Source: an uncultured Clostridia bacterium
GTDB lineage: Bacteria; Bacillota; Clostridia; TANB77; CAG-508
Reading direction: 5' to 3'
NCBI GenBank assembly: GCA_948735595.1
Contig: CAPXSA010000002.1
Location: forward strand, 33,713-97,712
Length of the DNA stretch: 64,000 nt
Under the pieces are notes generated by a model. It searched no databases. It was given only the letters and a program-made list of their open reading frames with translations, and had not been told where the DNA came from. Numbering within the stretch: the first letter of the stretch is position 1; every line of letters starts with the position of its first letter. The translations under genes were made by a program, and so were the position numbers. Shown here in pieces: positions 5,369 through 53,560 of this stretch.

Positions 5369-6070
5369 ATGTTCAAAAAAATAACAAAGAATAAAAGAAG
5401 CATGTGGGCAATGGTAATAGTAACCTTAGCATTTAGTTTATTCTTTTCTTATCATATATTTGTCAGAAATAGTCAGACAGAGGCATTATCTAAATATGGT
5501 TCTAGAGGTGATGAAGTAAGACAAATTCAAACAAAACTAAAAAGATGGGGATATTATAAAGGAAATGTAGACGGGATTTATGGCAGTCAAACACAAGCAG
5601 CAGTTAGATGGTTTCAGTCTAAAAATGGCTTGACAGTAGATGGAATTGCAGGAAAAAACACTTTAAAGGCAATGGGGATTATGAATTCAAGTAATAGTTC
5701 TAGTTCAGGTGCAACAACATCTAATGATTTGAATTTATTATCAAGACTTGTTTATGGTGAGGCAAGAGGAGAACCATATTCTGGGCAGGTTGCTGTTGCA
5801 GCAGTTGTATTAAATCGTGTTAGAAGTAGTTCATTTCCAAACTCTGTATCAGGAGTAATTTATCAAAAAGGAGCTTTTGATGTAGTATCAGATGGACAAA
5901 TTAATTTAACACCAAATGATACAGCAAGAAAAGCAGCCCAAGATGCATTAAATGGTTGGGATCCAACTTATGGAGCAATTTACTATTTTAATCCAAGTAC
6001 TGCAACTAATAAATGGATTTGGTCAAGACCAATGACAGTAACTATTGGTAGACATAGATTTTGTAAATAG
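5369..6070 (+). CDS. sleB: spore cortex-lytic enzyme SleB (PG-binding domain + Hydrolase_2)
   Basis: 233 aa; signal/TM, PG_binding_1 repeat (YGSRGDEVRQIQTKLKRWGYY..VDGIYGSQTQAAV) and SleB hydrolase domain (LLSRLVYGEARGEPYSGQVAVAAVVLNRV). Confidence 0.8.
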   Translation: MFKKITKNKRSMWAMVIVTLAFSLFFSYHIFVRNSQTEALSKYGSRGDEVRQIQTKLKRWGYYKGNVDGIYGSQTQAAVRWFQSKNGLTVDGIAGKNTLKAMGIMNSSNSSSSGATTSNDLNLLSRLVYGEARGEPYSGQVAVAAVVLNRVRSSSFPNSVSGVIYQKGAFDVVSDGQINLTPNDTARKAAQDALNGWDPTYGAIYYFNPSTATNKWIWSRPMTVTIGRHRFCK

Positions 6071-10919: not shown

Positions 10920-10994
10920 TGGCAGGGGTAGAAGGATTCGAACCCTCACAGGCGGTTTTGGAGACCGATGTGCTACCATTAACACTATACCCCT
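10920..10994 (-). tRNA. tRNA-Trp (anticodon CCA)
   Basis: reverse complement AGGGGTATAGTGTTAATGGTAGCACATCGGTCTCCAAAACCG...GGTTCGAATCCTTCTACCCCTGCCA folds as cloverleaf with CCA anticodon; GC-rich against AT-rich background. Confidence 0.85.
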
Positions 10995-11119: not shown

Positions 11120-11480
11120 GGGGATGTATTTTGGCTTCGACAGTATTCCAGAAGTATTAGTAGCGAGTAGTGGATTCTCACTTGGCCACTTAAATCATGT
11201 GAGAAATTAAAATTAAACGCTGATAATAGAGAATTAGCATACGCTGCCTAGTTGCGGCGACGTCTTACTTTAAGTGCCCACGCTTTTAGATAAGGCGTAG
11301 ATATAGTGGGAAACGAAACTGTTTTTAGTTATGGAAACAGTGGGTAACTTTAAATAACTACTTTCTATATAAGCTTGTTTGTTAGGTTATATAGAAGGGA
11401 ATTTTGAAAACAAACTGCACTCGGAGAAGCTGGTATGGAAAGAATATTGGACAGGGGTTCGACTCCCCTCATCTCCACCA
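11120..11480 (+). ncRNA. ssrA: tmRNA (ssrA), tag reading frame ADNRELAYAA*
   Basis: 5' GGGGATGT..GGCTTCGACAG tRNA-like start, 3' GGACAGGGGTTCGACTCCCCTCATCTCCACCA T-arm/acceptor; internal ORF GCT GAT AAT AGA GAA TTA GCA TAC GCT GCC TAG; -10 TATAAT at 11091. Confidence 0.9.
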
Positions 11481-11507
11481 GTTATAATAGCCTACGATTA
11501 AATACAA

Positions 11508-11548
11508 ATAAAGAATTCGAGATTAATATATTTCTCGAATTCTTTTTG
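11508..11548. terminator. bidirectional terminator (tmRNA / convergent ORF)
   Basis: 12-bp stem AAGAATTCGAGA...TCTCGAATTCTT with T/A runs on both sides. Confidence 0.6.
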
Positions 11549-11822
11549 CATTTTCAAGTGTTATTCTATTATTCATAACAGCACAATTAATTAGATAATA
11601 TAAATTATCTTTGCAAGTACTATCTTCATGTTCTATGATTTCGTCTAATATATAGTTAGGAATAGCAAAATCAAAGCGAGATTGTATCTTACTTGCTTTT
11701 TGCTTCCATATTTTAACTTCTTCAGGCATTTCTATATGAATAGATGAATTTGTATTAAACAATAAAGTATCTTCAAACTCCTCTAAGCGAGAAGAAAATG
11801 TTTTTTTAAACTCTTTTGTCAT
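11523..11822 (-). CDS. hypothetical protein
   Basis: 99-aa ORF downstream of and co-oriented with the XRE regulator gene. Confidence 0.4.
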   Translation of the reverse strand: MTKEFKKTFSSRLEEFEDTLLFNTNSSIHIEMPEEVKIWKQKASKIQSRFDFAIPNYILDEIIEHEDSTCKDNLYYLINCAVMNNRITLENAKRIREIY

Positions 11823-11922
11823 ATGTATATGTCCTTTTATAAAATATAATATAATATATTTTATAAGAAGAACAATCCAATGTCAATATAAAAATTTCAA
11901 AACAAATAAATATATTCGAAAT

Positions 11923-12249
11923 TTATTTACTCTTTAGAAATAAGACTAACTTTTGCAACGCCTCACAACCAACCTCTATTTGTTCATTAGAAAATTCTGA
12001 TAAAATTGTTTTTGTGTTGTTAATAATATCATTATCTTTACCAAATAAGATATAATCAGCTGACAAATTGGTTATATCACAAAGAATTTTTAATTTTTCT
12101 ATGGATAAATAGCTTTTGCCATGTTCAACGACGCCTAAATATTGACCAGAAATTCCAAGCAATTTAGCAAACTTTTCTTTCGTCATACCCATATTTTCTC
12201 TAATTTGTCTAATTCTTTTTCCTACTTCTTCTTTCATCAGTAAATCCAC
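11923..12249 (-). CDS. XRE-family HTH transcriptional regulator
   Basis: 108 aa; GKRIRQIRENMGMTKEKFAKLLGISGQYLGVVEHGK is a Cro/C1-type HTH; divergent from the response-regulator gene. Confidence 0.75.
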   Translation of the reverse strand: MDLLMKEEVGKRIRQIRENMGMTKEKFAKLLGISGQYLGVVEHGKSYLSIEKLKILCDITNLSADYILFGKDNDIINNTKTILSEFSNEQIEVGCEALQKLVLFLKSK

Positions 12250-12386
12250 TCCTCGTAAATCTTTATATATAAGTTATTCTAGACGATTAGATAAACATAA
12301 AAATGAATATAAATAATATTAAAATGTGGAAAGATATTACAAATTATGATATTATATGACCATAAATTTTTAACGGAGGAAGAAAA

Positions 12387-13169
12387 ATGTCAAGTGCACC
12401 AATAAAAATATTATTAGTAGAAGATGACATAGATGAATGCAATAGATATAAAGTTATTAGTGATAAAAGAAGTGACATCAATTTAGTAGCAGTTACAAAT
12501 TCATCCACTAAAGCGATTGAATATTTAAAATACTATAAACCAGATGCTGTAATTCTAGATTTAGAATTGAATAAAGGTGAAGGTAGTGGTTTTGAATTTA
12601 TTGAAAACATGGCGAAACAAAGTGTAACGAAAAGACCTAACATTGTTGTAACTACTAATGTATGTTCTGACTCTGTATATGATTTTTGTCATAAGAACAA
12701 AATAGATTTTATCTTTTATAAGAAACAAGTAAATTATTCACAAGAAAAAATTTTGAATACCTTACTGCTATTAAGTGGCTATGAGAATGAGAAAACAGTG
12801 GAATATGAAGTAGATGAAAAAGTAGAAGAAGACAAGATTATAGATAAAATTAATAAGGAACTAGAATTAATTGGAATTAGTTCACATTTGCAAGGTAAGA
12901 AATATTTATGTGATGCTATTTATTTTGTTATTAAAAATGATGCAAGAGATACCAAAATATCAATTATTCAACATCTGGTAGGCAAATACAAAAAGTCAAA
13001 CAGTACGATTAGTAGGGCTATGCAAAATGCAATATTACATGCTTGGAGAATATCATCATTAGAAGATTTAACAACTCATTATACTGCAAGAATCAATTAT
13101 GAAACTGGTGTGCCAACTCCTACAGAATTAATTTATTATTATGCAGACAAAATAAAGAAGGAAGTATAA
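12387..13169 (+). CDS. Spo0A-like response regulator (REC + Spo0A_C DNA-binding domain), divergent paralog
   Basis: 260 aa; REC domain with acidic pocket (LLVEDD...VILDLEL); C-terminus ISSHLQGKKYLCDAIYFVIKND...ISRAMQNAILHAWRIS...PTPTELIYYYADKI aligns to the Spo0A C-terminal domain but diverges from the near-invariant Spo0A recognition helix. Confidence 0.65.
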   Translation: MSSAPIKILLVEDDIDECNRYKVISDKRSDINLVAVTNSSTKAIEYLKYYKPDAVILDLELNKGEGSGFEFIENMAKQSVTKRPNIVVTTNVCSDSVYDFCHKNKIDFIFYKKQVNYSQEKILNTLLLLSGYENEKTVEYEVDEKVEEDKIIDKINKELELIGISSHLQGKKYLCDAIYFVIKNDARDTKISIIQHLVGKYKKSNSTISRAMQNAILHAWRISSLEDLTTHYTARINYETGVPTPTELIYYYADKIKKEV

Positions 13170-13269
13170 AACTAATTACTCCTAGCGTTATATTTTAGAA
13201 AAAGTAAGAAAATTGTCATTTTATGTCATAAAAAATAATGGAATGCAACAGAAAAACACCTCTGAATAT

Positions 13270-13293
13270 CATGTATACAATCACGTATACATG
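13270..13293. promoter_or_regulatory. 9-6-9 perfect palindrome CATGTATAC-AATCAC-GTATACATG (candidate regulator binding site)
   Basis: read directly from sequence; lies between the RR gene and the peptide ORF/HK promoter. Confidence 0.4.
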
Positions 13294-13337
13294 GTATTTT
13301 TTTATTGTAAATATAAGCACACAGGGGAGGTGATAGT

Positions 13338-13388
13338 ATGAGTTTTTGGGAGTGGTTATTAAAATGGATTGGCGGATCAGGAAAATAA
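13338..13388 (+). CDS. 16-aa Trp-rich peptide MSFWEWLLKWIGGSGK (candidate signalling/regulatory peptide)
   Basis: ATG 7 nt after strong RBS GGGGAGGTG; 3 Trp in 16 aa; ~100 nt upstream of the AgrC-like kinase gene; not in the ORF track (<60 aa). Confidence 0.35.
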   Translation: MSFWEWLLKWIGGSGK

Positions 13389-13492
13389 TAAAAACGCAGT
13401 TTGTAGTAATCAAAATAATACAATGAAATAAAAGTATTATATTGATTGCTACATTTTTTTTATATATAATTATATTCAAAAGGGAGAAAGCA

Positions 13493-14995
13493 ATGAATTT
13501 ACAGATAAATACAATTGTAAATTTTATGAAATTATTTATACTAAATTTATATGTATATTTAGTATTCATGAAAATTATTAATAATACAAAATATAGCATA
13601 AGAAAGGTAAATTTAGTAGTAATATCAAATTTTATATTAAGCATGATAACAGTATATATTGATACTTATATAGATTTTTTTCTATCAATAGTATTTTTAA
13701 TTGTAATCTATAGTGGACTAATAGGTATAATTTATAAGATAAAACTTGGATATTCATTTATAGTTAATTTGATTTCTTATGCAATATGCATGGTTTTATA
13801 TGTAATAAGTATAATAATCAATTTTATTCCATATAGAATATGTTCTGAAGTCTTTCATATAGATAATGACTATCTAACACTATTCTTGTTGCTAATGGTA
13901 TTGTCCATTTTGTTATATGGATTTTTCAAGATTAAAAGATTTAAAAACGGATTTGATTTTTTGAAAATAAAATTAAATAATGATTATACAGATATTATTG
14001 TAATGAATATTAGTACAATAATCATATTAATATATAGTTCGCTTGGAAGCTTTGTAAGAATTAATTTTGAAAAACTAACAAGAAATTTATTTATTTCATT
14101 TAGTATTATAGCAATTATTATGATTATAACGATCCAAAAAACTCTCACTATGTACTATAAACAAAAACTATTAAAGCAAACTATGAAAGATTACGAAAGA
14201 GAGTTAGTAGAAAAGAATAAAGAAATAGAAAGACTGAAAAGTGAGAAATTTAATATCAGTAAAATTACACATGAATTTTATAACAGACAAAAAGCATTAG
14301 AAAAATCTGTAAAAGATAAATTAAGTAATATGGAAACAGCAGAAGAGTTAGGTGCTATTAATAGAATACAAGATTTAACAAAAGAATATTCACAAAAACT
14401 AGAAGCAATGAAAAGTCTAACCACATTGCCTTTGACAGAAATTCCTGAAATAGATGATATGTTCAAATATATGCAAACAGAATGTGATAAAAATAAGATT
14501 GAATTTAAGTTAAAGATAGTGGGAGATATGTTTTATTTAGTAAATCATATTATTCCTAAGAACAAGCTTGCAACAATGATAGGTGACCACATTAGAGATG
14601 CCATTATTGCTATTAATTCTAGTAAAACAACTGATAGAGAAATATTTGTAATATTGGGAATCAAAGATAGAAAATATGAATTGTGCATTTATGACACAGG
14701 AATAGAATTTGAAATAGATACTTTATTGAAACTTGGACTAGAGCCGGTTACTACTCACAAAGATACTGGAGGTAGTGGAATAGGATTTTTAACAACATTT
14801 GAAACATTGAATGAAACAAAGGCCAGTTTAATGATTAAAGAATTATCTGATTCAGAAGGAAATCATTATACAAAAGCTGTTATTATTAGATTTGACAATA
14901 AACACCAATATAAGATATATTCTTATAGAGCAAAAGAAATGAAAGAAAAGAATCAAGATAGAAAAATAATAATAGAAGATATAACAAGTTATTAA
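13493..14995 (+). CDS. membrane sensor histidine kinase, AgrC/ComD-like (HPK10 family, GHKL ATPase)
   Basis: ORF 13442..14995; ATG 13493 follows RBS AAAGGGAGAAAG; 6-7 N-terminal TM helices; H-box ..KITHEFYNRQKAL..; C-terminal DTGIEFEIDTLLKLG...GGSGIGFLT ATP-binding motifs; -35 TTGATT / -10 TATAAT at 13442-13470. Confidence 0.7.
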   Translation: MNLQINTIVNFMKLFILNLYVYLVFMKIINNTKYSIRKVNLVVISNFILSMITVYIDTYIDFFLSIVFLIVIYSGLIGIIYKIKLGYSFIVNLISYAICMVLYVISIIINFIPYRICSEVFHIDNDYLTLFLLLMVLSILLYGFFKIKRFKNGFDFLKIKLNNDYTDIIVMNISTIIILIYSSLGSFVRINFEKLTRNLFISFSIIAIIMIITIQKTLTMYYKQKLLKQTMKDYERELVEKNKEIERLKSEKFNISKITHEFYNRQKALEKSVKDKLSNMETAEELGAINRIQDLTKEYSQKLEAMKSLTTLPLTEIPEIDDMFKYMQTECDKNKIEFKLKIVGDMFYLVNHIIPKNKLATMIGDHIRDAIIAINSSKTTDREIFVILGIKDRKYELCIYDTGIEFEIDTLLKLGLEPVTTHKDTGGSGIGFLTTFETLNETKASLMIKELSDSEGNHYTKAVIIRFDNKHQYKIYSYRAKEMKEKNQDRKIIIEDITSY

Positions 14996-15011
14996 GATAA
15001 TCTTAAAATGC

Positions 15012-15046
15012 AAAGTACAACTCTAATAAAGTTGTATTTTTTTTGA
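15012..15046 (+). terminator. rho-independent terminator after kinase gene
   Basis: AAAGTACAACTctaataaAGTTGTATTTTTTTT. Confidence 0.6.
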
Positions 15047-15113
15047 ATTTATGATATAACAGAAACATAGAATGATGTATTGATGCTTAAGGGCATCAAG
15101 AAAGGAAGAAAAA

Positions 15114-15797
15114 ATGAAAAAATTTGGAAATATTTTATGGGGATTAGTATTTATTGTACTAGGTCTTGTACTAGGCTTAAATGCTATGGAAATAACTGAT
15201 ATTGATATCTTCTTTAGAGGATGGTGGACCTTATTTATTATTATTCCATGTTTTATAGGGATTTTTAGAGAAAGAGAAAAAATAGGAAATTTAATTGGAT
15301 GTTTAATAGGTGTAGCATTATTACTATGCTGCCAAGGAATTTTGGATTTTGATATGATGTGGAAATTATTGGTACCAACTGTTTTAGTAGTTGTTGGATT
15401 ATGCTTTATTTTTAGAGAAGCAATTGGTGGAAAAATCAATCAAGAAATCAAAAACTTAAATGCAAATAAAAAAGGACAAACAGAATATTGTGCTACTTTT
15501 TCAGGACAGAATTTGAACTTTGATAGACAAGAATTTAAAGGAGCAGACTTTACAGCTGTATTTGGCGGAGTAAAATGTGATTTAAGAAATGCGATTATTA
15601 ACTCAGACCAAGTGATTAATGCTAGTAGCACTTTTGGAGGAATTGATATTTTTGTACCATCTAATGTACAAGTTAAAATCAAATCAACTCCAATATTTGG
15701 TGGAGTAAATGATAAAGCAAGCCATACCTCAAACCCAGAAGCACCAACTCTATATATTAATGCTACTTGTATATTTGGAGGTGTTGAAATAAGATGA
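15114..15797 (+). CDS. LiaF-like / DUF2154 cell-envelope stress membrane protein
   Basis: 227 aa; N-terminal TM segments and C-terminal repeated FGGV/FGGI beta-strand motifs. Confidence 0.5.
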   Translation: MKKFGNILWGLVFIVLGLVLGLNAMEITDIDIFFRGWWTLFIIIPCFIGIFREREKIGNLIGCLIGVALLLCCQGILDFDMMWKLLVPTVLVVVGLCFIFREAIGGKINQEIKNLNANKKGQTEYCATFSGQNLNFDRQEFKGADFTAVFGGVKCDLRNAIINSDQVINASSTFGGIDIFVPSNVQVKIKSTPIFGGVNDKASHTSNPEAPTLYINATCIFGGVEIR

Positions 15798-16642
15798 CAA
15801 CCATACAAAGAATTATTAAATATTGTGCCATTGCTTTTGCTATTTTTATTATAGTTAGCATTATATCATCTATTCTTTTTGGATTAAATACCTTTAGTGA
15901 AATTTTAGGATTTGCAAGAACAGAAAGAGAGCCAGAGCCTTCCAATAATATAATTCATAATGAAGTGGGAAGAGATGAAAAGGTAGAAAAGGAATTTGAC
16001 AATACGCAAATTGCAAAATTAAAAATAGATATTGAGTATGCAACATTAACTATTCAACAAGGTGATAAATTCAAAGTGGCTAGTAATACAAGTAACATAG
16101 AAGCAAAACAGTCTGAAGATGAAATAGTAATTAGAGAAAAGAATGTAAATTTATTTAGACAAAATAGCCCAAGAAGAATTATTATTACTGTTCCAAGAAA
16201 CACTGTATTAGATACAATTAAAATTGCAGCAGGAGCAGGTGAAATTAAAATTGAAAAACTAGAATGTAAAAAGTTAGATTTAGATATTGGAGCGGGAAAG
16301 ACCACGATTCAAGATTTAAATGTTACACAAAAAGCAAAAATCGAAGGTGGAGCAGGAAAAGTAGAAATCCTATCAGGAGAAATTGCAAACCTAGATTTAG
16401 ATATGGGAGTAGGTATGTTTAAAATGGTGTCAAGCTTATTGGGAGATACTAAAATTAATGCAGGAGTAGGAAAATTAGAAGTTACTCTAAAAAATGGAAT
16501 TGACAAATATACAATAAAAGCAAATAAAGGAATTGGATCTATTACAATAGATGGAAAAGAAGTATCAGATGGTGCTACTTATGGTAAAGGAGAAAATAAC
16601 ATTAAAGTAGAAGGCGGAATAGGAAGCATTACTATAAAATAA
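15794..16642 (+). CDS. DUF4097 (toastrack/putative adhesin) domain protein
   Basis: 282 aa; N-terminal TM then repeated G.GxxxI beta-helical repeats (IAAGAGEIKIE, IGAGKTTIQD, EGGAGKVEIL...). Confidence 0.5.
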   Translation: MTTIQRIIKYCAIAFAIFIIVSIISSILFGLNTFSEILGFARTEREPEPSNNIIHNEVGRDEKVEKEFDNTQIAKLKIDIEYATLTIQQGDKFKVASNTSNIEAKQSEDEIVIREKNVNLFRQNSPRRIIITVPRNTVLDTIKIAAGAGEIKIEKLECKKLDLDIGAGKTTIQDLNVTQKAKIEGGAGKVEILSGEIANLDLDMGVGMFKMVSSLLGDTKINAGVGKLEVTLKNGIDKYTIKANKGIGSITIDGKEVSDGATYGKGENNIKVEGGIGSITIK

Positions 16643-16832: not shown

Positions 16833-17673
16833 ATGATTAATCTATTATTAAGTGGAAATGAAAAAGTATTTGATGGAGCATTAACACAATTAATTTCTAT
16901 CAAGAATAGAACAAAAGAGCCTGTTCACTGTTATATTTTTACAATGGACGCTACTAGAATAAAGCCAGAATATACGGCGATTCGAGATGAGCAAATTGAT
17001 TTCTTAAATCAAGTAGTAAAAGCAAAAGATGAAAGAAATCAAGTAACAAAAGTGGATGTAACAGATTTGTATGAGCAAGAGTTCAAAGGTTGTCCTAATG
17101 AAGGAGCCTATTGTACGCCATATACTTTGTTGAGGCTTTTAGCAGATAAAATAGCAGAAGTTCCAGACAAGTTACTTTATTTAGATATTGATATGATGGT
17201 AGCTGATGATTTATCTAAGCTATATGATATTGATGTTTCAGAATATGAGTATGCAGCAGTAAGAGAAAAATATCGGTTGTTGGTTTGTTAGACCAGATTA
17301 CATTAATGCAGGTATGCTACTCATGAATATGAAAAAAATAAAGGAAACTGGACTTTTAGAAAAAGCCAGAGAAAAAATCAAAACAAAGAAAATGCTATTT
17401 GCAGACCAAGATGCAGTGTTTAGGTCTACTACTAAAAAGAAATTACTTCCACGCATTTATAATGAACAATCTAAATTCAATAAAGAAGATACAGTCATTT
17501 GCCATTTTTGCAAGAGATTAATGTATAGACCATATCCACATACAGAAAATATTAAGCAATGGCATATTGATAAAGTACATAGTGTATATAAGTGCCATGT
17601 ATTTGATAGCGATTTAGAAGAGTATTTAAAGCTAAAAGAGAAATTTGAACAAAAAGAACTCATAACAAAGTAG
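16833..17673 (+). pseudogene. glycosyltransferase family 8, interrupted by frameshift near 17268 (A5 run)
   Basis: ORFs 16833..17291 and 17314..17673 are two halves of one GT8 protein; second frame reads ..EKNIGCWFVRPDYINAGMLLMNMKK (GT8 'NAGVLL' motif) directly continuing the first. Confidence 0.6.
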
Positions 17674-27295: not shown

Positions 27296-27339
27296 ATATA
27301 AAATACAAAGGGCAAAATGATAAAATGAGGAGGAGACGA

Positions 27340-30112
27340 ATGGAAGAAAACAAAAAAGAGTGGTTTAATCAGTCTGTAGAAGAAATAAAAGAAAAATTAA
27401 AAGTAGAAGAAACACAAGGATTATCAGAAGAACAAGTTGCGAAAAATAGAGAGATTTATGGATTAAATGAGTTAGCAACCAAAAAGAAGAAGAGTTTATT
27501 TGTGAAATTTTTAGAACAATTTAAAGATTTCATGATTATTATTTTAATTATTGCAGCTATTATTTCAGGAGTAGTTGGCTATTATGAAGGAGAAGGTATT
27601 ACAGATTCGATTATTATCTTAATCGTGGTTATTGTCAATGCTATTATTGGTGTTGCTCAAGAGAATAAAGCGGAAAAATCACTAGAAGCTTTACAGAGAT
27701 TAAGTTCCCATGTGGTGAAAGTAATGCGCAATCGGCAATATAACAGTGGTACCTTCTAAAGAATTAGTACCAGGAGATATTGTGGTGCTAGATACAGGAG
27801 ATTATGTGCCTGCAGATTTGAGAATTATAGAAGCAGTAAATTTAAAATCGCAAGAAGCCTCTTTAACAGGTGAGTCTGTTCCAGTAGAGAAAAATACACT
27901 AGTAATAGAGAAAGAAAAAGTAGGAATTGGAGATAGAACCAATATGCTATTTTCTTCAAGCCTAATTACTTATGGTAGAGGAAAAGGAATTGTTGTAGAA
28001 ACAGGAATGACAACAGAAGTAGGAAAAATTGCAGGAATGATTAACGAGGTAGAAGATACTGAGACACCACTTCAACAAAAGTTAAATAAGCTAGGAAAAG
28101 TATTAGGAATAGCTGCCATTGTAATTTGTGTTTTCATTTTTGGAATTGGTTTACTTTATGGAAAAGACCCAATGGATATGTTTATGACAGCGGTTAGTTT
28201 AGCAGTAGCAGCAATACCAGAAGGATTAGCTGCGGTATCTACCATTGTTCTTGCAATTGGTGTACAAAGAATGGTAAAAAAGCATGCCATTGTGAAAAAA
28301 TTGCCAGCAGTAGAGACTTTGGGAAGTACAACGGTTATTTGTTCAGACAAAACAGGAACATTAACACAAAATAAAATGACAGTCAAAAAGTTATTCTATA
28401 ATAACCAATTAGTAGAAATAGAAAACGTCAATACAAATGAAACTACTGAAGAACTAGAAAAGTTAGTATATATTAGCATGTTTTGCAATGATACAAAAGT
28501 AGCATCTGACAAAACGTTAACAGGAGATCCAACAGAAACAGCTTTAATTGATATGGCTTTTAACTTAGATTTTCAACCAACAGTGTTAGAACAATACCCA
28601 CGTGTAAAAGAATTACCATTTGATTCAGAAAGAAAGTTAATGACCACTGTTCACAAGTTAACTGATAAATATGTAGTATACACAAAAGGCGGAGTAGATG
28701 AATTATTAGCAAGATGTGATAGCTATGTGATAAATAACGAAGCGAAGCAAGACTTAGAGAGTTTCAAACAAGAAATTGCAAAACAAAATGAAGCAATGGC
28801 AAAAGATGCTCTTCGTGTACTTGCTATGGGATATAAAGAAATAGACCATGAGCCAACAGATGAGGAAATGAAAGATATTGAAAAAGATTTAATCTATGTT
28901 GGAATGGTAGGAATGATAGATCCACCAAGAGAAGAAGTAAAAGACGCAGTTGCAAAATGCAAAAGAGCTGGTATTAAAACTGTGATGATTACAGGTGACC
29001 ACAAGGCAACAGCTATTGCCATTGCAAAAGCATTAGGCATTTTAGAAAGTGAGGAAGAAGCACTTACAGGGGCAGAACTAGAAGAAATGTCTGACCAAGA
29101 CTTAATTGCAAATGTAAGAAAGTATAGTGTGTATGCTAGAGTATCTCCTGAGCATAAAGTGAGAATTGTCAAGGCATGGAAAGAAAATGGAGAAATTGTA
29201 GCTATGACAGGTGATGGTGTCAATGATGCACCAGCTTTAAAAACAGCAGATATTGGTTGTGCAATGGGAGTGGTAGGAACCGATGTAGCAAAAGAAGCAG
29301 CAGATGTTATTTTGACAGATGATAATTTTGCGACAATTGTATCTTCAGTAGAAGAAGGAAGACGTATTTATGATAACATTTTAAAGGCAATTCAATTTTT
29401 GCTATCTAGTAATGTTGGAGAAATCATCATCCTATTTGTTGCAATACTAATTACACCATTACTTAGTAAATGGTTTAATATAGATGTTAATTTAATTGTA
29501 CCATTATTACCAATACACATTTTATGGATAAACTTAGTAACAGACTCTTTGCCAGCACTTGCCTTAGCAGTAGACCCAGCAGAAAAAGATATCATGGATA
29601 GAAAACCTATCAAACCAAAGCAAGGTGTTTTTACGAAAGGAATGACTTGGAGAGTAATTTACCAAGGCGTTATGATTGGAATAATTACACTTACTGCCTT
29701 CATTATTGGTTTAGCAACACCAGTAGACCAGCTACCAATGGTAGAAGTGACGGATAGTGAGGGGATGATAAGAACATTATCAGAGGAAGAAGTAAGAGTG
29801 GAAATTGGTCAGACTATGGCATTTACTGTGCTAGCACTTTCAGAATTGGTTCATGTGTTTAATATTAGAAATAATAAAAAGTCTATTTTTAAAACAGGAA
29901 TTTTCAGCAATCGCAAATTAATTTTAGCAAATTTGGCTTCAGCGCTATTGATGCTAGTGATACTAATTGTACCTGCATTAAGAAACATTTTCAGCATTCC
30001 AGTATTACCAGTAATGAATATTATTGAAATTGTATTTTTGATATTTATACCAGTTGTGGTTGTGGAATTGTTTAAATTGTTTAAGATAAATACGACGAAA
30101 GATGAAGTGTAA
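27340..30112 (+). pseudogene. P-type Ca2+/cation-transporting ATPase (P2-type), frameshift at ~27733
   Basis: ORFs 27325..27759 and 27746..30112 together form a complete P-type ATPase (Cation_ATPase_N, DKTGTLT phosphorylation site, TGDGVNDAPAL hinge, 10 TM); removing the C in AAT-C-GGC restores ..VMRNGNITVVPSKELVPGDIV.. Confidence 0.75.
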
Positions 30113-40664: not shown

Positions 40665-40747
40665 GTCGATGTGGCGAAATTGGTATACGCACAGGTCTCA
40701 AAAACCTGCGGGAAACCATGTGGGTTCGATTCCCACCATCGACACCA
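40665..40747 (+). tRNA. tRNA-Leu (anticodon CAA), element-borne replacement copy
   Basis: GTCGATGTGGCGAAATTGGTATACGCACAGGTCTCAAAAACCTGCGGGAAACCATGTGGGTTCGATTCCCACCATCGACACCA; long variable arm; acceptor and anticodon stems self-consistent but differ from the disrupted chromosomal gene. Confidence 0.85.
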
Positions 40748-40751
40748 TAAC

Positions 40752-50955: not shown

Positions 50956-51852
50956 TTAAAGATTTCCATATACAAATCTAGTAGAATTTTTTATTTGTAA
51001 TGTATTCCAAAAGTTTATAGTATTTAATGATTCATCCTTTATTGTAAAACATTTATCAGCTTCAAGTGTTATTCCGCCTAAAAGATATTCATTAGGAAGA
51101 ATAGCTAAGTAGTAATTTGGAGTTAAAGGAAAACCAATAAAAACATCGTTTCTGCCAATTCCATTTTTGAGAAGTTTAGTTCTATAATTGTATCGAATGA
51201 CAGGATTATCACTAATTATAAATTTTCGAGTAGATAAATTGTGAAATAAAATCCATGTTTTTGATAAAATTTCTGTGGAGAAATTCTCTATTCTATCATT
51301 GTTAGTAACTATGCTAAGCATAAGATCCTTATAATATAAATCATCTTGATACTTTTTGATTACACTAGAAAATTTTTTTAGTTCATCTGAACTATTTAAT
51401 TCTCTATCTATAAAATTTAGAGTTTCTATATAATTATCTTTCATATTATATATCATATCTGGAACTCTACAAACTTGATTTACTAATATTCTTGCTAAAT
51501 CTTGCTTTAATGAACCTATACTTAATGGATGTTCTACTAAATTATTAAGTTTTGCATAGAAAATTACCTTATTTATAGTGCTTGAATAGATAGAGTCAAC
51601 TGAATAAGTATAGAAATCTTCATAACTTTTCTTTCCAAAGTTATCATTTGCATTGTAAATATTCTTTTCAAATCCTATATTTTTCTTTGTTGAAGTATAT
51701 ACAGTATTTAATTTTTTATCATATACAAAAATAGTACCATTTTTATTCTCAAAAAAGTGTAAATAAGATTGTGGAATAAAATGATTTTTTATAGTTTTAA
51801 TATCTCTACTAGGAATATATTTTTTTATTTTATTATTCATAACTATCACCAA
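50956..51852 (-). CDS. DUF4238 domain protein
   Basis: 298 aa; N-terminal ..IKNHFIPQSYLHFF.. matches the DUF4238 signature (H-x-IPQ-x-YL-x-F). Confidence 0.55.
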   Translation of the reverse strand: MVIVMNNKIKKYIPSRDIKTIKNHFIPQSYLHFFENKNGTIFVYDKKLNTVYTSTKKNIGFEKNIYNANDNFGKKSYEDFYTYSVDSIYSSTINKVIFYAKLNNLVEHPLSIGSLKQDLARILVNQVCRVPDMIYNMKDNYIETLNFIDRELNSSDELKKFSSVIKKYQDDLYYKDLMLSIVTNNDRIENFSTEILSKTWILFHNLSTRKFIISDNPVIRYNYRTKLLKNGIGRNDVFIGFPLTPNYYLAILPNEYLLGGITLEADKCFTIKDESLNTINFWNTLQIKNSTRFVYGNL

Positions 51853-52086
51853 TATGGTTATAGCATAAAATTAATCAATAGTAAACATTCTATTACATCT
51901 AACATTATTTATCACATCTAGCATAATATCTAACATTTTTACCAAATACTTGCAAAATGTAGAAGATTTATGTTATAGTTAAGCAAGTAAGAGAAACAAA
52001 GATAAGTGCTAGAAAATCCATAGTTTTGGACTATATAAAAAGTGTTATTTAATACTAAGTATTAATAAGTATAAAACACATTAAAA

Positions 52087-52138
52087 AATTCAAAATCCAG
52101 CGGGAAACCATGTGGGTTCGAGTCCCACCATCAGCACC
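52087..52138 (+). pseudogene. 3' half of disrupted chromosomal tRNA-Leu(CAA) (attR side)
   Basis: ATTCAAAATCCAGCGGGAAACCATGTGGGTTCGAGTCCCACCATCAGCACCA; acceptor 3' strand CATCAGC pairs with GCTGATG at 40485. Confidence 0.75.
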
Positions 52139-52353
52139 AACGACGTATCTGTTCGAACTAAATTAAGTAGATAGATACAAATATCGTTCTGAAAAGGATG
52201 GTATTTTTTTTATTTGAGAAAAGAATTATTGTCTCGCAGAACTCCATGTTATGATGGTACATTATAACATATAGGGGGGGACTTCAGCCAAGACGAAGTT
52301 CTGTGCTACGAAGGAATAAGAGAGCACACTCATCGAGTATGCTCTCCATAGCT

Positions 52354-52878
52354 TTAAAGACCTAAATCTTTAGCTTGTGCTTCTGTGACAATGCGTACAC
52401 CCTGTTTAATAAGGATATCTTTCAAAAGTTCCACAATACCTTCCAGTTGCGCAATTTTTCTCTGTTTGCGAGAGAGTTTTTCCATTTCATGCATAGCATT
52501 CCATGTCAACCACTCTTGAGCATCGTAGAGATAACTTTCACTAGTTCCGTGAAACTCGTCTTGAAGCTTAATGCGATTACCATTAGCATCGCTCAGAATG
52601 TAATATCCGTCTTTTCCTTCCTTTCTTTCCACAATAGTGAAAATGGAAGGACAGGGATACTTGGAAAGAGGGTACTTAGTAGTGTCAGGGGTTACACCCC
52701 AATTCACCCGCTGTCCGAAGATAACTGTCTGTCCCACTTTGCCTTTGCCATAGATTGCATTGACTTCAATCTTCTTGCCGTTCTGCCAAAACTCTAGCAT
52801 GGTGATTCCTACCCTTCTTTTACCCGTGAGATTGGATTTGCCCGTGAGGACTTCCACCGAGTAATAATGCTCCTTCAA
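52354..52878 (-). CDS. hypothetical protein in a GC-elevated (~42% GC) patch just outside attR
   Basis: 174-aa ORF with protein-like composition; local GC clearly above flanks; G7 homopolymer at 52273-52279 lies just downstream. Confidence 0.4.
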   Translation of the reverse strand: MKEHYYSVEVLTGKSNLTGKRRVGITMLEFWQNGKKIEVNAIYGKGKVGQTVIFGQRVNWGVTPDTTKYPLSKYPCPSIFTIVERKEGKDGYYILSDANGNRIKLQDEFHGTSESYLYDAQEWLTWNAMHEMEKLSRKQRKIAQLEGIVELLKDILIKQGVRIVTEAQAKDLGL

Positions 52879-52982
52879 ATGTCACAAAGCTTTGAAACAG
52901 AAAGTAATACCGTTTCAATTTTTAATACATTTAAAGAATATATTTATAATATCATATTTATGTAAAATTGTCAAAATTTATT

Positions 52983-53106
52983 TGACAATTAACGAGAATC
53001 TGTGTATAGTAAATATAGAAAATGACAAGTCCACAAACGTGGTTTTGCCAAATAGATTTGAAAAAACTCATACATAACTCGCCAAAGATACAGATGTGAG
53101 TTTTTT
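52983..53106 (+). ncRNA. candidate small RNA: consensus sigma-A promoter then ~90-nt transcript ending in terminator
   Basis: TTGACA(52983)-17-TATAGT(53005); hairpin AAAAACTCATACAT...ATGTGAGTTTTTT at 53062-53106; no ORF >11 codons. Confidence 0.25.
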
Positions 53107-53560
53107 ATTTATGTAGTTGCTTATCAACTCAGTTCTTATACAGAATTGCTGTTAAGGCAACGTTTAATGTTAAAGAGAACATTAAGGATATTATAAAAAT
53201 AGTATCACTTTAACCATAAACATCACCACTTTTCCTACGATAATTCGTATAATTGGTGGCAAAACCACATCTGTTTATTATCATTTCCTATGTTTCACAG
53301 TATAGCATAATATTTATAGTAAAACAATAGAAAAAGAACAAATATTTGCTCATTAAAAATACACCTCCGAATGTTAGATTTTTGTCCAACATTTTGAGTG
53401 CACTTCAATAATGGATAGTTCTTTTTTTATAAAGCAATGCATCCTCACAGACTATCATGGTATCAATCACTCGATTAATATCAGCAATGATATACTTTAT
53501 TATCCCTTTTCCAAAAAATGAAATTGACAAAAAACGACAGAAATATTACAATAATACTAG

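Follow-up and report, generated by a model that had tools for sequence, protein, structure and literature searches.

A short tryptophan-rich peptide gene, a Spo0A-like regulator and a seven-helix sensor kinase form a candidate quorum-sensing module in uncultured gut Clostridia

What does a gene for a peptide of 16 amino acids do between a Spo0A-type response regulator and a membrane-bound histidine kinase? The question is raised by a locus in a 64,000-nucleotide stretch of contig CAPXSA010000002.1, from an uncultured Clostridia bacterium (this whole stretch is referred to here as the window). Only a few architectures of peptide quorum sensing have been described in Firmicutes (agr, com/blp, comQXPA and RRNPP) and, to our knowledge, the triggers of Spo0A-type regulators in Clostridia have long been sought, the natural signals for sporulation being largely unknown. 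A preliminary description of the locus took it for a peptide-associated two-component system with a Spo0A-type output. Comparison with 77 homologous loci fetched from reference genomes (cited below by L numbers) bears this out and leads us to a more specific reading: the cassette is probably an autoinducing peptide/kinase/Spo0A-paralog quorum-sensing module with pherotype specificity. Two features absent from the preliminary description, a divergent XRE-family gene (11923-12249) as conserved module member and a pherotype-like hypervariability, are added here.

The hosts of the 77 loci are nearly all uncultured organisms named 'Clostridia bacterium' or 'Clostridium sp. CAG', from the gut of human, mouse, ruminant, rabbit and chicken. 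Counted as clusters at 90% identity, relatives of the regulator number more than 1,100 and those of the kinase more than 2,400. In almost every locus whose sequence extends far enough, the regulator precedes the kinase by ~300 nt. On this comparison the cassette is a widespread, conserved signaling unit of uncultured gut Clostridia.

The first matter is whether the small open reading frame (ORF) is a gene at all. It has a strong ribosome-binding site (RBS), as already noted, and orthologous loci keep it: in ~65 of them GGAGGTG or GGTGGTG is followed by a reading frame of 12-18 codons that lies 50-150 nt upstream of the kinase start, and the conservation extends down to 33-36% kinase identity and ~40% regulator identity. 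Tryptophan makes up 21% of the peptides family-wide (three codons of the 16 in the window), and 62 of 65 sequences are distinct; they follow a pattern of the type M-(S/T/D)-(F/W)-W-(E/D)-W-(L/I/V)-x-(Y/F)-(W/I)-x-(G/R), or belong to related classes. Both strands of 820 kb (1.64 Mb in all) were scanned for RBS-preceded ORFs of 11-20 amino acids with at least two tryptophans. This gave 70 matches, of which 68 were the peptide at its expected site upstream of a kinase homolog and only two lay elsewhere. By this measure the small ORF is a genuine gene, far beyond chance. The conserved Ser, Phe and Glu codons of the peptide vary synonymously (AGT/AGC, TTT/TTC and GAA/GAG), and therefore selection acts on the amino-acid sequence.

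The second matter is what the peptide is selected for, and here the distribution of variation is informative. Nucleotide identity between the window and L005, L006, L007 and L054 drops from ~90-97% to ~60-68% solely within ~13300-14100, a block that comprises the peptide transcription unit and the transmembrane sensor of the kinase. Close relatives are fully syntenic around the cassette, and at the protein level their flanking genes, regulator and kinase core are 88-100% identical, as against 47-54% for the first 225 kinase residues; the peptide is different. Examples of alleles on nearly identical backgrounds are MSFWEWLLKWIGGSGK (the window), MSFLDWIRYWFGGGK and MSFWEWITYWFGGHK.

The same structure emerges from a comparison of pairs of loci, limited to those with a kinase core identity of at least 85%. 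Pairs with identical peptides have cores that are 85-93% and sensors that are 86-98% identical; for pairs with different peptides the corresponding values are 89-100% and 29-64%. The extreme case is provided by L039, L045 and L058, whose cores are 99% identical and whose sensors share 29-44%. A partial Mantel test of peptide against sensor distance, given core distance, yields r=0.22 (p~0.001). Synonymous divergence (dS) is saturated in the sensor (0.6-1.4) and low in the kinase core (0.08-0.58); therefore the alleles are old and have been moved by recombination. Matching structure, with a variable signal and sensor and a conserved core, characterizes agr groups and comQXP pherotypes. Taken as a pattern in sequences, the co-diversification argues for direct, specific recognition between peptide and sensor under social or diversifying selection.

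Table 1. Features of the cassette and its immediate surroundings, in window coordinates.
Feature	Position	Strand	Description
tRNA-Trp	10920-10994	-	Precedes tmRNA in window order
tmRNA	11120-11480		Precedes orf99 in window order
orf99	11523..11822	-	99 aa; follows the XRE gene as second in its transcription unit; accessory to the module
XRE/Cro-C1-type helix-turn-helix regulator	11923..12249	-	108 aa; divergent from response regulator; conserved module member
Tandem boxes TATTACA, TATGATA, TATGACC	12335..12361	+	10-bp period; XRE-regulator intergenic region
Response regulator	12387..13169	+	260 aa; receiver and Spo0A_C; putative Spo0A paralog
Tandem 0A-box-like repeats	13214..13248	+	TGTCATT at 13214, TGTCATA at 13224, a degenerate position, TGCAA at 13244
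Hairpin T1 and T-run	13264..13306	+	Stem 13264-13299, 15 pairs; putative intrinsic terminator of regulator gene
Hypervariable (pherotype-like) block	13300..14100	+	Peptide transcription unit and transmembrane sensor of kinase
Peptide gene	13338..13388	+	16 aa, MSFWEWLLKWIGGSGK; RBS GGGGAGGTG at 13323-13331
Hairpin T2 and 8-T run	13402..13461	+	Stem 13402-13453; 3' of peptide stop; predicted to terminate peptide transcript
Kinase promoter (predicted)	13442..13470	+	-35 TTGATT within 3' arm of T2, 17-nt spacer, -10 TATAAT
Sensor histidine kinase	13493..14995	+	500 aa; seven-helix transmembrane sensor, DHp, GHKL CA domain

The kinase is the candidate receptor. An AlphaFold2 (AF2) model (mean predicted local distance difference test score, pLDDT, 77) places seven transmembrane helices within residues 7-215, of which the last continues as an unbroken helix into the dimerization and histidine phosphotransfer (DHp) domain; the model further shows a basic, amphipathic and conserved cytoplasmic loop (147-163), a long helix bearing His260, a second DHp helix and a catalytic and ATP-binding (CA) domain. 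The sensor (residues 1 to ~215) is joined directly to the DHp domain, with no large extracellular, HAMP or PAS domain in the model. Lysine and arginine residues concentrate in the predicted cytoplasmic loops, which fits an N-out topology, and the best-conserved segments of the sensor are likewise cytoplasmic, namely the 147-163 loop and the juxtamembrane region. Invariant motifs of the family are SKITHEFYNRQKALE, which contains His260, GDHIRDAI, the G1-like DTGIEF, which is without the second Gly of a G1 box, and GGSGIGF (G2).

The polytopic architecture of about seven transmembrane helices is thus as first described, but the assignment of the kinase to the HPK10 (AgrC) type is not upheld. When 64 family members were compared with profiles, none matched HATPase_c_5 (PF14501) at E<=1 and none matched a HisKA model; the generic HATPase_c profile matched 50 of the 64, weakly. 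A Foldseek search of the PDB with the kinase returned generic DHp-CA kinases (HK853, CusS, LvrB), with AgrC (6e52) at rank 40, and a sequence search of the PDB with the same protein returned no AgrC chain. The AgrC/HPK10 label is therefore an architectural analogy, membership of that family not being demonstrated. A profile search among 1.84e9 representatives recovered 726 clusters (at 50% identity) with E<=1e-30 and 1,437 matches with E<=1e-3. Judged by these searches, the kinases form a family of some size that stands sharply apart from mainstream kinases.

The regulator has the two domains that were ascribed to it. Pfam models of Response_reg (36.2 bits) and Spo0A_C (PF08769; 56.5 bits against a cutoff of 25, over profile positions 1-104 of 104) both match, and the C-terminal 105 residues (155-259) align with the structures of the Spo0A DNA-binding domain 1FC3 and 1LQ1. 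Residues of the receiver pocket (E12, D13, D14, D58, T88/T89 and K112) are kept across 63 regulator homologs. The earlier distinction from the housekeeping Spo0A also holds: because the score against the Spo0A equivalog model TIGR02875 of NCBIfam (81.8 bits) falls below the cutoff of 200, because the recognition helix is diverged and because some genomes carry tandem copies (L011 and L014), the regulator is, on sequence criteria, a non-canonical Spo0A. The helix reads STISRAMQNAILHAWR, conserved across the 63 homologs, as against SRVERAIRHAIEVAW in the Spo0A of 1FC3; the positions concerned presumably include residues that contact DNA in Spo0A. In nearly all loci the kinase gene is directly downstream. 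No canonical spo0A was found in the ~85 kb of the source genome examined.

If the three genes form a module, the manner in which they are transcribed should provide some information. Between the regulator and the peptide gene lies a palindrome (13270-13293), an exact 9-6-9 repeat as previously noted (CATGTATAC-AATCAC-GTATACATG), which forms the core of hairpin T1. In a terminator scan T1 is the sole terminator-like site in 11400-15200; its folding z-score is -5.3. Among 28 diverse loci compensatory double changes affect 8 of 11 consensus pairs, and most single changes produce G-U. Because they do, the pairing is to be sought in plus-strand RNA and not in a protein-bound DNA palindrome. An operator for the regulator, as suggested initially, or for the XRE protein, is accordingly disfavored: the arms covary over 11-15 bp with strand-specific G-U intermediates, and the likely boxes are situated 20-50 nt further upstream. 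The palindrome may, nonetheless, have an operator role besides that of terminator.

The 3' arm and T-run of T1 also supply an extended -10-like element, TGnTAyyTT (TGGTATTTT, 13292-13300), present in 45 of 51 non-redundant loci and mostly 34-46 nt before the ATG. It is kept in loci that have no hairpin, including orphan loci where there is no upstream regulator gene to terminate. From these data T1 appears to be a regulator terminator that overlaps the likely promoter of the peptide gene. In a subset of loci (L016, L021, L028, L033-L035, L039, L040, L045, L046, L051, L055, L058, L062, L066, L068, L075 and L078) the T-run that follows T1 can, in addition, pair with a downstream A-run (ATCTTTTTATTGTAAAAAATAAAAAGAT) to give a second hairpin in the 5' untranslated region (UTR) of the peptide gene, ~20-45 nt upstream of the ATG and just before the RBS.

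Beyond the peptide stop codon stands a second hairpin, T2 (dG -19.7 kcal/mol, z-score -5.8). An equivalent long hairpin, with arms that differ between loci yet remain complementary, is 3' of the peptide ORF in 50 of 50 loci examined (median of 19 pairs). The predicted kinase promoter that follows matches the consensus at 10 or more of 12 positions in 60 of 65 loci, nearly all with a perfect TATAAT. The peptide gene thus has the look of a very small transcription unit, ~150 nt long and bounded by a terminator on each side, and the promoter of the kinase that of a constitutive one. The transcript shared by peptide and kinase that had been envisaged probably does not exist, given a covarying terminator and a near-consensus promoter between the two. 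Rfam recognizes no family other than tmRNA in 11400-15200.

Upstream of T1, candidate binding sites for the regulator were recognized by their periodicity. In 51 non-redundant loci boxes of the form TGT[CA][AG] occur exactly 10 bp apart 30 times, where 0.39 is expected, and essentially at no other spacing; they hold a fixed helical phase to the -10-like element (about -53, -63, -73, -83 and -93). The sequence TGTCGA is found in nine loci against 0.5 expected (an 18-fold excess), and exact 0A boxes (TGTCGAA or TTCGACA) are present in several lineages. The core of the 0A box is TGTCGAA, with contacts at G2, C4 and G5 (PMC3485338). We propose the 0A-box-like repeats of the window as the likely binding site of the phosphorylated regulator.

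A second set of boxes occupies the intergenic region between the XRE and regulator genes. Across 53 non-redundant regions of this kind, autocorrelation finds 76 matches where 6.4 are expected (d=10) and 32 where 5.9 are expected (d=20). These boxes (TATGAYA) are opposite in orientation to those at the peptide promoter and share their strict 10-bp period; in the window they overlap an extended -10-like element (TGATATTAT) and read, on the other strand, as boxes of the TRTCATA type found there. A promoter scan marked a promoter-like site at 12327-12355, with a TG preceding the second hexamer.

The module extends to the XRE gene, which is directly upstream of and divergent from 59 of 63 regulator genes, with an intergenic distance of ~120-140 nt. 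Its product matches HTH_3 (Pfam, E=8.6e-12) and has no other domain and no tetratricopeptide repeat (TPR). A SinR-like identity is unsupported, the nearest solved structures being PezA and controller proteins. A homolog of orf99, which has no assigned Pfam, NCBIfam or PADLOC family, is present in 14 of the 77 loci and is repeated with each copy of the tandem modules of L011. Across loci the conserved partners are only XRE and sometimes orf99.

Rearranged forms of the cassette offer a further view of what its units are. L011 (4732-10947) and L014 carry tandem double modules, each of the order orf99-XRE-regulator-(peptide)-kinase. The entire peptide unit is gone from the first copy, where regulator and kinase are now 10 nt apart; identity from one copy to the other is 90% for the regulator, 78% for the sensor and 82% for the kinase core. 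Conversely, L047, L048, L050 and L052 hold orphan pairs of peptide and kinase with neither regulator nor XRE gene upstream. Ahead of the orphan pairs stand three 0A boxes in tandem, perfect or nearly so (TGTCGAA-TTT-TGTCACA-TTT-TGTCAAA), and the pair of L048 (5838-7428) lies between ftsH and a VirD4/TraG-like ORF, spoIID and spoIIID. We count tandem modules and orphan pairs as support for a signaling module, in that both resemble what is seen in other pherotype systems.

The sequences themselves show the genes and their domains, a conserved peptide under selection, its co-variation with the sensor within a bounded block, two covarying hairpins, periodic boxes and conserved promoter-like elements. 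From these features we infer export, ligand-receptor binding, phosphotransfer, binding to the boxes and a direction of regulation, as follows. The module would consist of three short transcription units and the divergent XRE unit, and would operate as a self-contained peptide-pheromone two-component system. The leaderless, tryptophan-rich peptide of 12-18 amino acids would be made from its own mini-gene, on a predicted transcript (~13307-13461) between T1 and T2, and would reach the outer face of the membrane probably by means of a general exporter encoded outside the module. There it would bind the membrane-embedded seven-helix sensor of the cognate kinase, itself made from its own constitutive promoter. 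Autophosphorylation on His260 would be followed by transfer of the phosphate to Asp58 of the regulator, and the phosphorylated regulator would bind the 10-bp-spaced TGTC(A/G)-type repeats upstream of the peptide promoter, resulting in positive feedback; it would also bind its own promoter region, which is shared with XRE. Peptide and sensor would diversify jointly, giving alleles of mutually exclusive specificity (pherotypes), and recombination would exchange these.

Several observations weigh against this quorum-sensing proposal. All of the evidence consists of sequences from uncultured organisms. The peptide has no signal or leader sequence, and no exporter, protease or modification enzyme is a conserved module partner across the loci. 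The N-box Asn of the kinase, which normally coordinates Mg-ATP in GHKL kinases, is replaced by Asp (GDHIRDAI; residues 363-370, 14579-14602) in at least 90% of the family. The global partial correlation between peptide and sensor is modest (r=0.22), and in one pair, L015 and L023, peptides that differ by a C-terminal Leu alone are accompanied by sensors that are 58% identical. Variability of the sensor differs little between the outer and inner leaflet halves of its transmembrane helices (1.90 and 1.75 bits), and therefore does not indicate on which side of the membrane the peptide acts. Finally, a search of the window for a regulon identified none: the tandem-box pattern occurs 3 times (0.58 expected), which is not significant, and apart from the cassette's own site these comprise one within an ORF and one that coincides with an ordinary TTGACA-17-TACAAT promoter.

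The lack of an exporter or processing gene would be explained if the peptide never left the cell. As a cell-autonomous modulator of its own kinase at the membrane interface, following the logic of MgrB-PhoQ or SafA-PhoQ, it would sit at the inner leaflet and tune kinase/phosphatase activity. A peptide that is short, aromatic, amphipathic and leaderless would suit this role, as would the cytoplasmic location of the best-conserved sensor segments (the 147-163 loop and the juxtamembrane region), and its expression, apparently under boxes likely bound by the cognate regulator, would complete a feedback loop. We nevertheless regard this explanation as unlikely. Extreme allelic diversification combined with recombined old alleles is a hallmark of socially selected signal-receptor pairs that intracellular modulation does not predict; 12-18 amino acids, unlike the known small-protein modulators of kinases of the MgrB and SafA type, are too short for a helix that spans the bilayer; and duplicate cassettes without a peptide, together with orphan peptide-kinase pairs, fit signaling between units.

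Nor does selection on the peptide require it to be a signal first and foremost. It could be an effector, that is, a leaderless antimicrobial or surfactant of the phenol-soluble modulin (PSM) or tryptophan-rich antimicrobial kind, placed under two-component control, perhaps inducing itself as nisin does through NisK, with hypervariability arising from selection in an arms race or for immunity. Staphylococcal PSMs, which are leaderless and under the control of a quorum-sensing regulator, offer a parallel, and the tryptophan-rich amphipathic composition and the strongly signaled mini-gene with its strong RBS are compatible with the idea. The peptides, however, are mostly near-neutral or acidic at the N-terminus rather than cationic, the module has no conserved gene for immunity or for an ABC transporter, and what the peptide co-varies with is specifically the kinase's sensor domain, a sign of recognition and not of killing; an effector strikes us as improbable.

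Least credible, to the point of being very nearly discounted, is a role of the small ORF as regulatory leader or upstream ORF, for instance a Trp-sensing attenuator of the kinase, or of the 150-nt transcript as mainly a small RNA in which the peptide is incidental: the abundance of Trp codons, the location ~100 nt upstream of the kinase, the nearby tRNA-Trp gene and a short transcript with a highly structured 3' end are in its favor, but nearly every locus has, between the ORF and the kinase, both a covarying terminator and a conserved promoter close to consensus, so that the kinase mRNA does not have the ORF as its leader (on which ground Trp attenuation was rejected), amino acids are kept through synonymous changes at non-Trp positions as well, the peptide co-varies with the sensor domain, tRNA-Trp adjoins few loci only, and no Rfam family matches.

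The surroundings of the cassette provide few clues beyond these. A tmRNA does neighbor the locus, as pointed out in the preliminary description; the adjacency is, on the loci compared, incidental, for it recurs in 4 of 45 loci checked and in two different arrangements (the close relatives L005 and L007, and on the other side of the cassette L021 and L028), and a tmRNA-associated genomic island was rejected. Cargo of a phage or plasmid was rejected too: the kinase is absent from IMG/VR viral contigs and from PLSDB, PHROGs and PADLOC give generic helix-turn-helix matches only, and matches to the regulator in phage records are only ~25% identical. The proposed tie to sporulation or toxin regulons found no support, no sporulation or toxin gene being linked to the cassette in the window. 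A SleB-like cell-wall hydrolase (Hydrolase_2 and PG_binding_1) at 5369-6070, upstream, hints at a sporulation or germination heritage of the lineage. Directly 3' of the kinase are genes for a LiaF-like membrane protein and a DUF4097 'toastrack' protein (15114-16642), with no LiaSR genes; because they are common to close relatives only, we do not consider them members of the cassette.

Other features of the window concern the genome rather than the cassette. A probable integrative mobilizable element (40665-53000) is inserted at tRNA-Leu(caa) (40665-40747). It includes an integrase whose coding sequence is divided between two ORFs (40752-41369 and 41443-42033, minus strand), an ORF with a HipA N-terminal domain (46060-46449), a HEPN/Toprim_N protein (47242-48474), a Mob_Pre relaxase (49223-50398, minus strand) and a DUF4238 protein (50956-51852, minus strand). 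At the promoter of a G5-SH3-glucosaminidase gene (53525-53550; TTGACA-17-TACAAT) the motifs TGACA, CGACA and TTACA succeed each other at 10-11 bp, a resemblance to the tandem boxes that is probably due to chance. A P-type cation ATPase is split (27325-30112), a Cation_ATPase_N ORF (27325-27759) overlapping the start of the main one (27746-30112); a frameshift or a mistake in assembly is suggested. Fragments of glycosyltransferase-8 (GT8; 16833-17291 and 17314-17673) precede a 632-aa GT8-acyltransferase fusion (the region extends to 19584) and may be a decayed duplicate.

A new family of kinases, a minimal peptide with no leader and an output derived from Spo0A are brought together in the cassette, which occurs in hundreds of lineages, at species level, of gut bacteria without cultured representatives. 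We suggest, more tentatively, that it could stand for a new class of Gram-positive quorum sensing, in which a leaderless and probably unmodified peptide is the allele-specific ligand of an isolated family of seven-helix kinases, the output is a duplicated Spo0A that reads 0A-box-like tandem sites, and orphan pairs such as L047-L052 may signal directly to the canonical Spo0A. Were this true, the orphan pairs would be a peptide-pheromone input into the clostridial decision to sporulate. The signal, as a short linear peptide, can be synthesized, and natural sets of alleles on near-identical backgrounds make the proposal directly testable in a heterologous host. As to possible uses, the cassette could provide orthogonal switches under peptide control, could mark social structure among strains of gut Clostridia, and could serve to ask whether cell-cell signaling feeds Spo0A-type decisions.

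No description of the cassette or peptide was found in the openly accessible literature, queried with peptide strings, with Spo0A-like, Spo0A paralog and PF08769, and through surveys of small proteins, in agreement with the initial view of the architecture as uncharacterized; the family described by Sberro et al. in their survey of small genes is another one, similar to AgrD. The closest parallels are systems of different composition. The agr system (AgrBDCA) of staphylococci, clostridia and listeriae likewise pairs a peptide signal with a kinase of ~7 transmembrane helices, without large extracellular domain, and a response regulator; it too has direct repeats in tandem ahead of the gene for the signal, as would fit autoinduction, and a hypervariable block of peptide and sensor beside a conserved kinase core and regulator, which defines specificity groups. 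The cassette differs in having no AgrB, no AgrD precursor of 40-50 amino acids and no thiolactone-forming Cys motif, its peptide being leaderless and of 12-18 amino acids; as originally reported, neither AgrB or AgrD nor a C39-type exporter is present in its neighborhood. The CA domain of its kinase does not match HATPase_c_5, its regulator has a Spo0A_C output instead of LytTR, and its genes are separate transcription units as opposed to a single P2 operon.

ComQXPA of Bacillus subtilis shares with the cassette a Trp-dependent peptide signal, a multi-helix membrane kinase and a pherotype polymorphism that is confined to the signal and the sensor part, with a conserved regulator and old alleles spread by recombination. 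The cassette has neither a ComQ prenyltransferase nor a precursor of ~55 amino acids, and in place of ComP and the NarL-type ComA it has an unclassified kinase and a Spo0A-type regulator. In Rgg/SHP and ComR/ComS (XIP) of streptococci, a very short, aromatic-rich ribosomal peptide (some XIPs have a WW motif) is also encoded by its own mini-gene, with no dedicated exporter alongside and with an XRE-type helix-turn-helix gene adjoining. There, however, the peptide is re-imported and the receptor is a cytoplasmic RRNPP protein (helix-turn-helix and TPR, ~280-320 aa), whereas the XRE protein of the cassette has 108 amino acids and no TPR, and the candidate receptor is the membrane kinase.

On the output side, copies of a non-canonical Spo0A DNA-binding domain are known to circulate in gut Firmicutes on phages and mobile elements: PF08769 is enriched on gut mobile elements (bioRxiv 10.1101/214213), and the phage Spo0A_C proteins are truncated and without receiver domain (PMC10294663). 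The cassette regulator, by contrast, is full length and coupled to a kinase that IMG/VR and PLSDB do not contain. It resembles Spo0A itself, together with its orphan kinases in Clostridia, in two-domain architecture and full-length homology; the proposed sites resemble tandem 0A boxes (TGTCGAA, 10-bp spacing), and direct phosphotransfer from kinase to regulator without a phosphorelay, if it takes place, would match clostridial Spo0A. It departs from Spo0A in its sub-cutoff equivalog score, in changes to a recognition helix that is otherwise near-invariant, and in its place beside a dedicated kinase, within a variable and sometimes duplicated cassette to which no sporulation genes are linked in the window. 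Judged by these comparisons, peptide quorum sensing through a two-component pathway with pherotypes is a known theme; what is new in the cassette is its three components and their organization.

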